Below, one piece after another: positions 1-6,108 of a stretch of 64,000 nucleotides of DNA. The translations under genes and the position numbers were made by a program. The stretch comes from Capsulimonadaceae bacterium (GTDB lineage Bacteria > Armatimonadota > Armatimonadia > Armatimonadales > Capsulimonadaceae): NCBI GenBank assembly GCA_965215505.1, contig OZ244065.1:960001-1024000 (forward strand), written 5' to 3'. The stretch's first letter is position 1; the number at the start of each line of letters is the position of its first letter. The notes under the pieces are model-generated. The model did no database searches and was not told the origin of the DNA. It saw only the letters and a program-made list of their open reading frames with translations.

Positions 1-607
1 GCAGGCGACCCGCCCACCGCCGCGCCTCGGCCCGCTTGTCCCCGTCCGTCTTGAAGGCCAGGTAGTTCGCCCCGTTCAGCGCCAGCAGGGCGGCACTCAG
101 CAGCCCGACGAGGATGGCGAACGGGTTCAGGGCCAGCGACAGCGAGCCTTGAAAGTTGCCCGTCGCGTCCAGCGGCACGCCCCGGACGACGTTGCCGACG
201 GCGGCCCCGAATAGCACGGCCAGCAGCAGGCTCGTGCCGCAGAAGGCGAAGTCCCAGAAGCCCCGCCACAAAGGGTCCGCCACCTGCGACCGGAACTCGA
301 TGGCCGACCCGCGCCCGATCAAGAGCCACAGGACGAGCATCAGGACCAGGTAGAAGCCGCTGAAGGAGGCCGCGTACAGCCGGGGGAAGGCGGCCACCAT
401 GCTGCCGCCCGCCGTCAGCAGCCAGACCTCGTAGCCGAACCAGAACGGCCCGATGACGGCCAGGTTCGTGCGCCGCTCGGCGTCATTGCGGCCCAGGACG
501 AAGTGCATGGCCCCGATGCCGAGGTCGAAGCCGTCCAGGATGGCGTAGCCGACTAGCAGCGCGCCCAGGGCGATGAACCAGGCCGTAGGGAGCCAATCAG
601 TATTCAT
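1..607 (-). CDS. cydB: Cytochrome bd ubiquinol oxidase subunit II (3' end off-window)
   Basis: Hand translation MNTDWLPTAWFIALGALLVGYAILDGFDLGIG...IGPFWFGYEVWL...AAFPRLYA...GNVVRGVPL; LDGFDLG motif; ATG overlaps cydA stop (ATGA). Confidence 0.95.
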   Translation of the reverse strand, partial: MNTDWLPTAWFIALGALLVGYAILDGFDLGIGAMHFVLGRNDAERRTNLAVIGPFWFGYEVWLLTAGGSMVAAFPRLYAASFSGFYLVLMLVLWLLIGRGSAIEFRSQVADPLWRGFWDFAFCGTSLLLAVLFGAAVGNVVRGVPLDATGNFQGSLSLALNPFAILVGLLSAALLALNGANYLAFKTDGDKRAEARRWAGRL

Positions 608-1995
608 ACCAGTGCCTCCAGTCGGGATAGCTCATCGATAGGGAGCGGCTGCCCCGGCGCGTCCGGCCCCGCCTCCTCCGGGCCGCGCGCGATGTGCTTG
701 AGCAGCAGGAACACGAACAGCAGGCCCAGCACGATGTAGATGCCGGTGAAGCCCAGCAGGGTGAAGATGACCTCGCCCGCCGAGACGTTCGGCGAGTACC
801 CCTGGCTCGTCCGCAGCACGCCGTAGATGATCCAGGGCTGGCGGCCCACGCAAGTCACCACCCACCCGGCCTCGTTGGCGATGTACGGCAGCGGCAGCGA
901 CAGCATCAGCGCCCACAAGTACCAGCGCGCCGCTTCCAGCTTTCGCCGCCACAGCAGGAACACGCCCAGAGCGGTCAGGGCGATGAAGTAGCCGCCCAGG
1001 GTGATCATGATGTGGTAGGCATAGTAGACGAGTTCGACCGGCGGCCACAGGTCACGGGGGATGTCGTTCAGCCCCTTCACCGAGGCGTGGGCGTCCCCGT
1101 AAGCGAGGTAGGACAGCAGGCCGGGCACCTCAACGGGGTCCAGCAGGTTGCCCTTTTTGGTGTCCGGCATGCCGATGATCGCGAGCGGCGCACCCGGCTC
1201 GCTCTTGAACTGGCCCTCCATGGCGGCCAAGGTCGTCGGCTGATACTTGACGACCATCTCGCCGTTCTTGGCCCCGGTGGGGAAGACTTGGGCGAGCGAG
1301 AAGGCCAGGCCGACGACCAGGCTGAGGGCCAGCGTGACGCGGGCGAAGGCGGTGTGCCTGCGCGAGAGCAGGTAGAAGGCCGCCAGCGCGGCCATGACGA
1401 GCGCGCCGTTGACGAAGGCCCCGCAGAGTGTGTGCAGGTACTCCCAGACCTCGAAGGGGTTTGTCAGCACGGCGGCCAGGCTGGTCAGGCGCAGGACGCC
1501 GCCGGGTTCGGGGGCGAAGCCGACCGGGTGCTGCATCCAGGCATCGGTGGCCGTGATGAAGTAGGCCGAAATGATCGAGCCGGCCGCGACGAGGGCGGCG
1601 GACAGGGCGTGGACCTTGACGGTGACGCGCCGCTCGCCGAAGAGGAAGACGGCGAGGAAGGCGGACTCGAGGAAGAAGGCGAACAGGCCCTCCATCATCA
1701 GGCCCTGGCCGATGATGCCGCCGGAGATGTTGGAGAAGCGCGCCCAGTTAGTGCCGAACTGGAACTCCATGGGGACGCCGGTGGCGACGCCCGCGCCGTA
1801 GTTGAGGAGGAACAGTTTGCCCCAGAAGCGTGCGGCGCGGGCGTGGAGTCCGTCGTAGCCCTCGCCGCGGCGCACCTGGATGACTTTGAGGGCGGCGATG
1901 AGGATGCCCAAGCCGATGGTGACGGGCGGGAACAGATAGTGGAACATGATCAGCGCGGCGAAGTGCACGCGGTCGGCGATGGCGGTCGTGTCCAT
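604..1995 (-). CDS. cydA: Cytochrome bd oxidase subunit I, short Q-loop, Glu-to-Cys variant
   Basis: FHYLF, EFQFGTNW, EGLFAFFLES, WMQHP, LAAMEG, HIM and GRQPW motifs. Confidence 0.96.
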   Translation of the reverse strand: MDTTAIADRVHFAALIMFHYLFPPVTIGLGILIAALKVIQVRRGEGYDGLHARAARFWGKLFLLNYGAGVATGVPMEFQFGTNWARFSNISGGIIGQGLMMEGLFAFFLESAFLAVFLFGERRVTVKVHALSAALVAAGSIISAYFITATDAWMQHPVGFAPEPGGVLRLTSLAAVLTNPFEVWEYLHTLCGAFVNGALVMAALAAFYLLSRRHTAFARVTLALSLVVGLAFSLAQVFPTGAKNGEMVVKYQPTTLAAMEGQFKSEPGAPLAIIGMPDTKKGNLLDPVEVPGLLSYLAYGDAHASVKGLNDIPRDLWPPVELVYYAYHIMITLGGYFIALTALGVFLLWRRKLEAARWYLWALMLSLPLPYIANEAGWVVTCVGRQPWIIYGVLRTSQGYSPNVSAGEVIFTLLGFTGIYIVLGLLFVFLLLKHIARGPEEAGPDAPGQPLPIDELSRLEALV

Positions 1996-2007: not shown

Positions 2008-2436
2008 CTATTTCACGATAAGAACGGGGCAATGCGCGTGGTGGACCACACGGTCACAGGTACTCCCGAGCAGGAACAGCGTCAGTCCGCTCGCCCCCCG
2101 GCTGCCCAGCACGATCAGGTCGCACCCCTCCACCTCGGCCAGGCGGATGATCTCGGCGGCAGGCTGGCCGACCTCCGAACGGCTTTGGTAAGACACGCCC
2201 GCCTCGTCCACGGTGCGACCCGCGTGCGAGATCGCGTGTTCTTGCAGCTCCGCGATGTACCGCTCGTCCAGCCCGGCGTTGACCATCTCCCCATAAGGCC
2301 CGATGGTCGGAATTGGCTGGAAGACGTTAATGATTGTCAGACGTGCCGCAAATTTGCTCGCCAAAGTCGCCGCCACGGCAGCCGCCTTGATCGCGCATTC
2401 GGACCCGTCCGAGGCCAGTAAGATATGGGTGAACAT
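2008..2436 (-). CDS. Universal stress protein (UspA family)
   Basis: ILLASDGS...DLIVLGSRG...LLGST...HAHCPVLIVK. Confidence 0.95.
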   Translation of the reverse strand: MFTHILLASDGSECAIKAAAVAATLASKFAARLTIINVFQPIPTIGPYGEMVNAGLDERYIAELQEHAISHAGRTVDEAGVSYQSRSEVGQPAAEIIRLAEVEGCDLIVLGSRGASGLTLFLLGSTCDRVVHHAHCPVLIVK

Positions 2437-2548: not shown

Positions 2549-2567
2549 ATTGTGATTTCTTCACAAT
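2549..2567. promoter_or_regulatory. Palindromic operator ATTGTGA-N5-TCACAAT (Rex/Crp-like) upstream of usp-cydAB
   Basis: Perfect 7-bp inverted repeat in an AT-rich intergenic region; spacer is 1 nt shorter than the Rex/Crp consensus. Confidence 0.5.
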
Positions 2568-2666
2568 GATATTATTTTTCTGATATTAACTATCAGCTTA
2601 CCTGCTGGGTGCTACCGTCTTGCCCTAATGCCCACGCGGCGAGACTATGCAGGTATAATAAAGCCC

Positions 2667-3308
2667 GTGGCACTCATCAAGATTTGCGGCATCACGAGCT
2701 GGCGGGACGCAGAGGCCGCTGTGGCGGCGGGGGCGGACATGCTGGGCTTCCACTGCGACGAGAACAGCCCGCGCGTCATCGACCCGCTGGACTTCTGCGA
2801 CATCGCCGCCCGCCTGCCCGCGCATGTCGTCCGGGTGGCGGTCTTCGACCGGACCACGGACGCCCGCTGGCGGCTGGAAGGACGGCGCGTGTTCCATCTC
2901 TTCCAGCAGGTCCAGTACTACCAGGACAGCGTCTGGAGCGACATCCTGCGGGAGAACTGGGACATGGGCCGCAAGATCAAAGCGTTCCACCTGGGCACCG
3001 ACCGCGACCTTCGCCGGGTCGCGAGCTTCAACGGCACCGTGCAGTCGTACCTGTTGAACGTCAACGCCTCGGCCCCGGCTTCCTACCCGGACGCGGACGC
3101 CTATGGGTGGGAGCTTGCCCGCGAGACGCACCAGTACGGCAAGAAGCTGTACCTCGCCGGCGGCCTGACGCCCGAGAACGTCGGGGCCGCCATCGCTCGC
3201 GTCCGTCCCTACGCCGTGGACGTGACCGTCGGCGTCGAGTCCGCGCCGGGCCTCAAGGACCCCAACCGGATGCGCGCCTTCGTCAAGGCCGTGCGGGAGG
3301 CGAAATGA
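2667..3308 (+). CDS. TrpF-like paralog 1 (divergent; catalytic Asp replaced by Asn)
   Basis: IKICGIT, ADMLGF, SPRVI, YLAGGLTPENV, DVTVGVE, KD; LLN instead of LLD; GTG 7 nt after TATAAT. Confidence 0.85.
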   Translation: MALIKICGITSWRDAEAAVAAGADMLGFHCDENSPRVIDPLDFCDIAARLPAHVVRVAVFDRTTDARWRLEGRRVFHLFQQVQYYQDSVWSDILRENWDMGRKIKAFHLGTDRDLRRVASFNGTVQSYLLNVNASAPASYPDADAYGWELARETHQYGKKLYLAGGLTPENVGAAIARVRPYAVDVTVGVESAPGLKDPNRMRAFVKAVREAK

Positions 3309-4322: not shown

Positions 4323-4934
4323 ATGACACGAATTATGATCTCCGGCGTCACGAACAGGCCGGACGCACTGGCGGCGGTGGAGGCCGGGGCGGATGCGCTG
4401 GGCTTCATCGCGATTCCCGGCAACCCGCGCTCTCTGGAGCCGCAGGAGTATTTCGAGATCACCGAGAACTTGCCGATCTTCGTCCGGTGCGTCGGCGTGT
4501 TCGAGCGGCCCGGCGAGTACGACGATTATATGCCGGATTATGTCCAGCACTACGAAGACACGGCGGCGGAGTCCCGCGCCACGGGCCTAGCGGGTATCCG
4601 CATCCGCGTCTTTCGGATGCGGGACGAGTCTACGCTGAACGAGATTCGGGACTATCCTGATCCGGTCGGCGCGATCCTGCTGGACATGGACCACGCGGGA
4701 ACGCTTTATGGGTCGGGCGAGACCTTCGACTGGTCCCTGGCCGTCCGGGCGAAGGCGCTGACGGACCGCCCTATCATCCTGTCCGGCGGCCTGACGCCCG
4801 AAAATGTTGGGGCCGCCATCGCCCGCGTCCGCCCCTACGCCGTGGACGTGACGGAGGGCGTCGAGTCCCCGCCAGGCGTCAAGGACCCGAACAAGATGCG
4901 CGCGTTTGTGGAGGCCGTGCGGGAGGCGAGATGA
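4323..4934 (+). CDS. TrpF-like paralog 2 (KICG replaced by MISG; chimeric)
   Basis: [35 protein letters not shown]. Confidence 0.85.
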   Translation: MTRIMISGVTNRPDALAAVEAGADALGFIAIPGNPRSLEPQEYFEITENLPIFVRCVGVFERPGEYDDYMPDYVQHYEDTAAESRATGLAGIRIRVFRMRDESTLNEIRDYPDPVGAILLDMDHAGTLYGSGETFDWSLAVRAKALTDRPIILSGGLTPENVGAAIARVRPYAVDVTEGVESPPGVKDPNKMRAFVEAVREAR

Positions 4935-5488
4935 TTATTGACCAAGAAGCGCGGGAGCGATGGGTCATTCCATTCTACATGAAGGTGCTTCACGCACAAC
5001 AACCGCTTGCTGTCACAGAGTTACTCATTGAGGCCAGCAATGCGATCTCGCAAGAAACCGTGGACGCCCTTCTGGCTGACTTCAATTGGCGGACCCGAAA
5101 GATGGCAGCGATCTACGCGGGCGTCAATGCTTGGTCGGGATTCACGGATGCAATCGGCGGGCACCTGCTCAAGAGTGAGGTCTGCTTTGCGGGCGCATCC
5201 TACTGTTTTGCGCTGGCCCGCTTCGGCTCAGACGATGCGGTTTTTTATCTCAAGCAGTACCTCGACATCTGGCTCAGGCGGCCCGAGTGCTGGTATGACC
5301 AGAGTCATGCGCTTGCCGCGTTGCTCTGGCTTGACCGTATTCGGGGCACCGACGATGCGGCGGCCTACTTGGCCAATGGGGGCATTTGGGAATGTTTTGT
5401 TCAGAACAAGCCTCACTGGGATTTGCAGCGTACTAGGCTAACATTTTTTGAGACGATGAAGTTTTGTCAGGAGCAATTTCCTCAGTGA
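4931..5488 (+). CDS. DUF6000-like hypothetical protein, lower GC
   Basis: PFYMK, NWRTR, LLKSEVCFAG-YC-ALA, YLDIWL...YDQ pattern; overlaps both neighbours by 4 nt. Confidence 0.65.
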   Translation: MIIDQEARERWVIPFYMKVLHAQQPLAVTELLIEASNAISQETVDALLADFNWRTRKMAAIYAGVNAWSGFTDAIGGHLLKSEVCFAGASYCFALARFGSDDAVFYLKQYLDIWLRRPECWYDQSHALAALLWLDRIRGTDDAAAYLANGGIWECFVQNKPHWDLQRTRLTFFETMKFCQEQFPQ

Positions 5489-6108
5489 CCAGAATCAAAA
5501 TCTGCGGCATCTCGAATGGCCTGGACGCGATGGCGGCGGCGGACGCGGGCGCGGACGCCCTGGGCTTCATCGCCGTGCCGGGCAGCCCGCGCTACCTGCC
5601 GCCGGAGGTCTATCGCGAGATCAGCGCGGCCCTGCCGATCTTGGTCAAGCGCGTCGTCGTCGCGCACCGGCCCGAGGACGCGGAGGAGTATCTGGCCGAG
5701 TACGTCCAGCACTACGAGGACGCCTCGGACGAGTCCCACATGCGGCGCGGGGCGGCCTGGCGCATCCGGGCGTTTCGGATGCGCGATGAGTCATCACTCC
5801 GAGAGATCGGGGCCTACCCCGACGCCGTCGGCGCAGTCCTGCTGGATGCCTACCACAAGGCGATGCTCGGCGGGTCGGGCGAGACCTTCGACTGGTCCCT
5901 GGCCGTCCGGGCGAAGGCGCTGACGGGCCGGCCCGTCCTCCTGGCGGGCGGCCTGACGCCGGACAACGTGCAGGACGCCCTGGAAGCCGTGCGGCCCTAC
6001 GGCGTGGATGTGGCTTCGGGGGTGGAGGCGTCACCGGGCGTCAAGGACCACGCGAAGGTTCGGGCGTTCGTGCGGGCGGTGAGGGAGTGGGATCTGCGGC
6101 AGGGGTAG
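5485..6108 (+). CDS. trpF: Phosphoribosylanthranilate isomerase (canonical copy)
   Basis: [38 protein letters not shown] all intact; immediately upstream of trpBA. Confidence 0.92.

Follow-up and report, generated by a model that had tools for sequence, protein, structure and literature searches.

Subunit I of the cytochrome bd oxidase encoded in the window (the whole 64,000 nt stretch of Capsulimonadaceae DNA analysed here) carries a cysteine, Cys382, at the column of Escherichia coli Glu445, and this residue is confirmed as a selected trait of a clade of Armatimonadota. Cys recurs at the same column in cyanobacteria and in other bacterial lineages. The most likely reading is that of a convergent and overlooked Cys variant of a known enzyme, an ordinary O2 reducer with a probably sulfur-bound heme.

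The CydA domain (PF01654, positions 3–418 of 418, E 2.7e-143), the fold and the pairing with CydB place the protein in the cytochrome bd superfamily, qOR family. An AlphaFold2 model (protein only, without heme; pLDDT 92.8) gives TM scores of 0.74–0.89 against solved CydA structures, with 0.89 against 7ose. The motif around Cys382, NEAGWVVT-C-VGRQPW, aligns without gaps with E. coli K-12 CydA (from NC_000913), as it does in the alignments with PDB sequences, and the earlier note had placed the Cys at this column correctly. The solved sequences 7ose, 6rko, 7d5i, 5doq and 9r2g all have Glu here (5/5). Glu codons (GAR) and Cys codons (TGY) differ at all three bases. In the E. coli alignment the equivalents of Arg9, Phe12, His19, Glu99, Leu101, Phe104, Glu107, Ile144, His186, Glu257, Met393, Trp441 and Arg448 are intact, in agreement with what the earlier note had said of His19, Glu99/107, His186, Met393 and Arg448. 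Coordinates are collected in Table 1. In one study, two metatranscriptome libraries from ice contain contigs about 88–95% alike that cover cydA, which indicates presence, not transcription.

Table 1. Features of the cydAB region (window positions unless a genome locus is given)
Feature	Position	Strand	Basis
cydB, subunit II, 344 aa in the genome, running past the window edge; 4-base overlap with the cydA stop	1..607	-	PF02322, TIGR00203 over cut-off
CydB Phe57-Gly-Tyr59 where E. coli has Asp58-Gly-Asn60, at which the CydB proton path ends	431..439	-	Alignment
cydA, cytochrome bd subunit I, 463 aa (P0001), short-Q-loop qOR1	604..1995	-	PF01654 match
Arg385 (E. coli Arg448), intact	841..843	-	Alignment
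TGC codon of Cys382, aligned with E. coli Glu445 (position of the b595 axial ligand)	850..852	-	Alignment
Met330 (b558 ligand, Met393 in E. coli) and Thr332 (aligned with E. coli Ala395; relatives have Gly)	1000..1008	-	Alignment
Thr255 instead of the usual Q-loop Lys252	1231..1233	-	Alignment
His188 (E. coli His186, b558 ligand)	1432..1434	-	Alignment
Glu102 to Glu110, spaced as in qOR1 (proton-channel pair, Glu99/Glu107 in E. coli)	1666..1692	-	Alignment
His19, heme d ligand position, intact	1939..1941	-	Alignment; role as described in PMC8585947
Phe12, shields the open face of b595; present in 4/4 full-length Cys lineages	1960..1962	-	Alignment; role as described in PMC8951039
Universal stress protein gene (usp), head of the operon	2008..2436	-	PF00582, E 7e-32
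usp-cydA-cydB-108 aa ORF-Acg FMN protein-cation ATPase-repeat protein-phosphoketolase-acetate kinase, one strand	G000:C1:950521-962436 (L237)		

Among the best 120 homologues (8000 candidates scored), the Glu445 column holds Cys in 21 and Glu in 99, and the best 18 all have Cys; the residue is thus no singleton among close relatives. The named relatives are Armatimonadota, some of them Capsulimonadaceae. Within the order, cydA was found in 20 of 71 genomes, with 23 matches (six Cys and 17 Glu), and the Cys-type gene is the only cydA match in each Cys genome, that is, the window genome and five others. In a sample of 401 genomes of the phylum, the Cys motif occurs in five, all in the window's family, and the Glu motif in 94. 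Inside a genus, the Cys-type gene substitutes for the Glu-type gene one for one. Pairwise dN/dS is 0.075–0.118 for the five closest orthologues and reaches 0.32 among distant pairs, whose dS approaches or exceeds 1. A sequencing error or a decaying gene, which had been thought unlikely from the start, can be rejected as good as outright: Cys is clade-wide and present in 21 homologous clusters, both TGC and TGT are used for it, the codon change from Glu involves three bases, dN/dS is about 0.1 and cydB is intact.

In every set that was not chosen for Cys, only Glu or Cys is found at the column. Eighty loci gave 71 Glu and three Cys, with six unreadable; 150 representatives from clustering at 50% gave 115 Glu and three Cys, with 32 unreadable by motif search. 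A pattern for codons not starting with G, which leaves aside Asp, Ala, Gly and Val, returned from the 401 phylum genomes only the five Cys genes and one match that is not CydA. Were the position relaxed, Ser, Ala, Gln or Asp would be expected to appear; since only Glu and Cys are seen, the ligand role appears to have been kept. The recurrence of a three-base change that swaps one ionisable metal donor for another also suggests this.

The Cys is not confined to Armatimonadota. A DNA pattern for GWxxxCxGRQPW matched at least 120 loci in metagenomes, a set that is selected for Cys and so gives no frequency. Among the pattern loci listed, 98 were CydA by tblastn and 22 were chance matches; 95 readable loci divided into 67 of cyanobacterial type, 18 of Bacilli type, four of chlamydial type, three of the window type and three of a fifth type. 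Cys-bearing clusters include Thermosynechococcus, Nodosilinea, Microcystis, Phormidium, Rossellomorea, the Bacillus cereus group and Rhabdochlamydiaceae. With a cyanobacterial CydA as the query, all 120 homologues among the matches listed have Cys, those named being from Nostoc, Calothrix, Anabaena cylindrica and Trichormus variabilis ATCC 29413. The annotated plasmid copy of CydA in T. variabilis ATCC 29413 has Cys at the column. Plasmid A of this strain, which is conjugative, carries two convergent cydAB operons (L224) that adjoin heme-copper oxidase and GMC oxidoreductase genes. The fifth Cys lineage is represented by the fragments L162, L167 and L172 (GWITTCIGRQPW), which group with qOR2/qOR3-like sequences.

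Phylogenetic analysis points firmly to several independent origins of the Cys. A 76-row tree (95 thinned rows, 29 of them dropped for size, with 10 named outgroups added; quick IQ-TREE, LG+G4, trait columns removed) contains four Cys groups that stand apart from one another, with Glu-bearing relatives next to each, and requires five changes. A 186-row FastTree tree has five Cys groups and needs seven changes; with long branches and no mixture model, the exact number is soft in both trees. A single clade of all 39 Cys rows was rejected (p-AU 4.9e-7), and the window CydA and cyanobacterial CydA fall into separate clades. Monophyly of just the 24 Cys rows from armatimonads was likewise rejected (p-AU 6.9e-4), because a Glu group lies within. 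Cys marks a clade of Armatimonadota, a possibility that the earlier note had raised, with one Glu group nested inside. In a careful 38-row tree this group (P0020–P0023) joins the Cys-bearing P0013 at 100/99, inside a clade supported at 100/97, and on this topology one nested subclade has reverted from Cys to Glu. An origin of the nested Glu group by recombination was considered and is not supported, as the Cys sister is highest in identity in nine of ten sliding windows. The easy return to Glu suggests that Glu and Cys are nearly interchangeable.

In E. coli bd-II, Glu445 is described as binding b595, with His19 binding heme d, the active site (PMC8585947). At this site a phenylalanine is reported to block the open face of b595 and the Leu101 insertion to open the O2 site of heme d, while in Geobacillus the positions of the two hemes are given as swapped (PMC8951039). 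The qOR1 subfamily is defined by seven residues between the two proton-channel glutamates (bioRxiv 2021.01.16.426971). In the window CydA, seven residues separate Glu102 and Glu110, Leu104 corresponds to the E. coli Leu101 insertion, and the tree groups the protein with E. coli, not with Bacilli/Embleya. Phe12 is shared with the Bacilli Cys lineage; the three Glu-type comparators of that lineage have Met or Thr. Taken together, the qOR1 spacing, Leu104 and Phe12 indicate that Cys382 most likely serves the relay heme b595 and not the O2-binding heme d, the heme order being read from the qOR1 signatures.

Electrons would then pass from quinol to b558 (His188/Met330), on to b595 and finally to heme d (His19), where O2 would be reduced. 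Cys382 would stand in for Glu445 and supply the relay heme with its ionisable axial ligand, probably a thiolate on ferric b595 that can be protonated or loosened upon reduction, and its ligation would lower or retune the b595 potential. A recent preprint relays that in E. coli b595 is more difficult to reduce with Glu445Ala and that potentials go up with Glu445Asp; on computational grounds it also argues that ferrous b595 is less stable with an anionic ligand, which favours transfer to heme d (bioRxiv 2025.09.03.673948). For the window enzyme, the direction of such a shift is inferred. A thiolate would act on b595 in the same direction as an anionic ligand. Overall we lean towards an active menaquinol:O2 short-Q-loop qOR1 bd oxidase, used at low oxygen, in which Cys382 is a replacement ligand that tunes b595. 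That the enzyme is an ordinary quinol:O2 bd oxidase is very probable from its homologues and context, and a direct Fe–S bond between Cys382 and b595, judged from position, seems fairly probable. The sulfur-ligated or retuned heme proposed in the earlier note thus stands as the leading interpretation, but the idea of a singular, rewired enzyme does not, as the same Cys is the cyanobacterial norm and is found in at least three more lineages.

The Cys side chain is two bonds shorter than that of Glu, so ligation would need a shift of the helix or of the heme. This shortness favours a different arrangement in the same O2-reducing enzyme, with the Cys not bound to iron, water or hydroxide in the gap, and the Cys either donating protons from the second sphere or being the sole small residue that fits. 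Glu445 has itself been considered a ligand that is weak and can be protonated (bioRxiv 2025.09.03.673948), and the return to Glu within the clade would agree with such an arrangement. A Glu immediately after the Cys (CEGRQPW), present in eight of 28 Cys rows, could also assume charge compensation. Size alone, however, would allow Ser, Ala, Asn or Asp, none of which occurs in the sets examined, and the harder reduction of b595 in E. coli Glu445Ala (bioRxiv 2025.09.03.673948) also speaks against this arrangement. We regard an unbound Cys as rather unlikely.

Within the Cys clade, CEGRQPW was noted in P0014–P0017, P0024, P0026, P0030, L085 and L126, and its Glu is possibly a stepping stone or a charge compensation. 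A compensating residue common to all Cys lineages was sought in the alignment and not found. His239, which occurs in cyanobacteria and Bacilli, was rejected for this role, as it is common anyway (44% of short-Q qOR1; PMC13189123, table S3). The defining features of the OR-C and OR-N families were not found, His188, Met330 and Glu260 being present, and a scan of the window CydA for CxxCH gave no match and no heme c fusion. Covalent attachment of a heme through a single Cys does exist, an example being heme ci of cytochrome b6f, and the Cys is invariant in each lineage. Both facts would suit a Cys382 that is thioether-bound to the heme, or a b595 site that is empty or holds another cofactor. Such arrangements are nevertheless highly improbable: in solved relatives the residue is described as lying on the axis of the iron and not at the edge of the porphyrin (PMC8585947), Arg9, Phe12, Trp441 and Arg448 near the site are unaltered, and the position has reverted to Glu.

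Cys382 is accompanied by other departures from E. coli, of which Thr255 (Lys252), Ala242 (Asp239) and CydB Phe57/Tyr59 (Asp58/Asn60) were absent from the earlier note. At the quinol site Glu257 is present (Glu260), Lys252 is replaced by Thr and the rest of the Q-loop is intact. Lys252 has been given a loop-stabilising or proton-release role in a 2026 structure (PMC13189123). Its column holds Thr in 22 of 28 Cys rows and in all six nested Glu rows, and Lys in 94/94 other Glu rows; six of the 28 Cys-clade rows retain Lys. To judge from these counts, Thr at the Lys252 column is not tied to Cys at the Glu445 column. The Ala395 column, described as lining an inhibitor pocket near b558 (PMC13189123), has Thr in 23/28 Cys rows vs 0/100 Glu rows, a contrast that amounts to only two independent pairs. 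Further changes are Arg391 to His and Asn148 to Asp; His391 and a variable residue 239 are ordinary among short-Q-loop qOR1 (PMC13189123, table S3).

The change in CydB extends to a wider armatimonad bd clade with both Cys and Glu members (the window, L001–L004, L008, L085, L126 and L201–L209), in which CydB has W[FAT]GYEVW for W[DN]GNEVW and CydA has Gln11His and Thr15Leu. The Asp58 column of CydB, called conserved family-wide in a preprint, holds Phe, Ala or Thr in this clade and Asn in 47 Glu-type outgroup loci. Asp58Asn is also frequent in Acidobacteriota and Eremiobacterota loci. The loss of Asp58 in the wider clade predates the Cys. A tie between the two was rejected, since cyanobacterial and chlamydial Cys types have Asp and Glu-type sisters lack it. 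The wider clade may have an altered proton path that affects charge separation, and, given the loss of Lys252 and CydB Asp58, the activity or charge separation of the clade may differ from that of the standard enzyme.

The cydB gene is complete in the genome. The cation ATPase downstream is of the P-type, and parts of the gene set recur beside cydAB in relatives, in changing order. The combination of Usp, Acg-family FMN protein, cation P-type ATPase, phosphoketolase and acetate kinase is one that we take to be a hypoxia-regulon-type set. Upstream of usp-cydAB lies a perfect palindrome with 7-bp arms, ATTGTGA-N5-TCACAAT (window 2549–2567). The core TGTGA-N5-TCACA has its sole genome copy here and is one base shorter than a CRP/FNR-like site; the N6, CRP/FNR-like version occurs at 13 sites elsewhere in the genome. 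The palindrome was not found within 900 bases upstream of cydA at nine related loci. Elsewhere in the window, three phosphoribosylanthranilate-isomerase (TrpF-like) genes (2628–3308, 4323–4934 and 5464–6108, + strand) form one cluster before trpBA, kept apart by DUF1152 and DUF6000 genes.

This cydA is the only one in the genome, which is 96% complete. Heme-copper oxidase subunit I is represented by two divergent CcoN-like proteins below the cbb3 cut-off (G000:C1:3236161-3237441 and 894562-895899; L226 and L227), and a search of the genome with PF00115 found no A-type oxidase. Two futalosine-type genes (PF02621) are present for menaquinone, and menB was not found in the genome. No CydD scored over the cut-off in the genome, nor in any of 39 family genomes of Cys or Glu type (27 candidates scored per genome); a tie between the Cys and a lack of CydDC was rejected, as the count is 0/39 regardless of type.

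Thiolate hemes with NO- or peroxide-type chemistry are known elsewhere, in P450, NOS and chloroperoxidase, and the earlier note had suggested an enzyme rewired in this manner for NO, peroxide or sulfide. That precedent, the alteration of CydB Asp58/Asn60 together with CydA Gln11/Thr15 in the wider clade, and the two CcoN-like subunits, which could cover respiration, would be consistent with a changed substrate. On the other hand, the conserved Phe12 covers the open side of the heme that Cys382 faces, the heme d residues are intact, and no NO, sulfide or peroxide metabolism genes were found among the 43 neighbour proteins scanned. Cys-type and Glu-type genes swap one for one within a genus, and an altered substrate is unlikely because the cyanobacterial Cys-type Cyd reduces O2. 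The suggestion now seems very improbable, and we prefer the ordinary O2 reducer.

A structural review calls this Glu strictly conserved (PMC8951039), and a review of heterocyst proteins states that the ligands are conserved family-wide, cyanobacteria included, naming the Glu (PMC6616624). Our literature search found no paper naming a natural Cys here, although primary papers and supplementary alignments or logos outside its reach may show one. The role of heme b595 has been called a long-standing question (bioRxiv 2025.06.23.660515). At stake are what the b595 ligand must do and the effect of a thiolate on potential, O2 affinity and resistance to NO or sulfide. Natural Cys/Glu sister pairs (about 70% identity) and cultured cyanobacteria make the b595 ligand question directly testable. 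The significance is tempered by the enzyme most likely doing an ordinary job and by the chance that the substitution already stands in the literature. As a tentative proposal, bd oxidases might comprise two interconvertible ligand classes, with an unrecognised thiolate class that has arisen at least five times over qOR1, qOR2-like and qOR3, apparently including all cyanobacterial Cyd. If so, electrons in such a respiratory terminal oxidase would pass through a Cys-heme, and the thiolate class would have its own b595 potential and its own tolerance of NO, sulfide or peroxide; for Bacillaceae it is even conceivable that the O2-binding heme carries the thiolate.

Among known systems, the window enzyme resembles the solved qOR1 short-Q-loop oxidases of Mycobacterium tuberculosis (7NKZ), Mycobacterium smegmatis (7D5I) and Corynebacterium glutamicum (8B4O) and the long-Q E. 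coli bd-I (6RKO) and bd-II (7OSE). Common to them are the fold (TM 0.76–0.89), the cydAB operon, the Glu99/107 spacing with Leu101, and His19, His186/Met393, Phe12, Trp441, Arg448 and Glu257. It differs from the solved oxidases in having Cys for Glu445, Thr for Lys252 and Ala for Asp239, in CydB Phe/Tyr for Asp58/Asn60, and in a genome with no CydD over the cut-off. Laboratory variants of E. coli Glu445 (Ala, Asp) concern the same position, but are engineered, not natural; Murali and Gennis reportedly tested further Glu445 substitutions in 2018, possibly including Cys. The Bacillaceae qOR3-type CydA, GW[IV]F[AS]C[TS]GRQPW (Rossellomorea, Brevibacillus and the B. cereus group), has Cys and Phe12 as in the window, but is only about 30% identical and has a six-residue Glu spacing. 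Its closest solved relative, from Geobacillus thermodenitrificans (5DOQ), has Glu at the column, and there this residue binds heme d.

A further known system is the cyanobacterial Cyd (plastoquinol oxidase; Synechocystis PCC 6803, Anabaena/Nostoc), which carries the Cys too; the connection with the purified cyanobacterial enzyme, that of Synechocystis PCC 6803, is made through the group and not through its own sequence. For Synechocystis Cyd, the activity described is that of a plastoquinol:O2 reductase (PMC7796093). Since this accepted member also lacks the Glu, the Glu445 ligand is not a valid criterion for exclusion from the qOR family. Cyanobacterial Cyd is 33–37% identical to the window protein, forms its own clade beside Glu-bearing proteobacterial sequences and, unlike the window protein, has Arg before the Cys, His239, Lys252, CydB Asp58 and another quinone. 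The residue is thus common to a subfamily that is already characterised, while the window protein lies outside that group.
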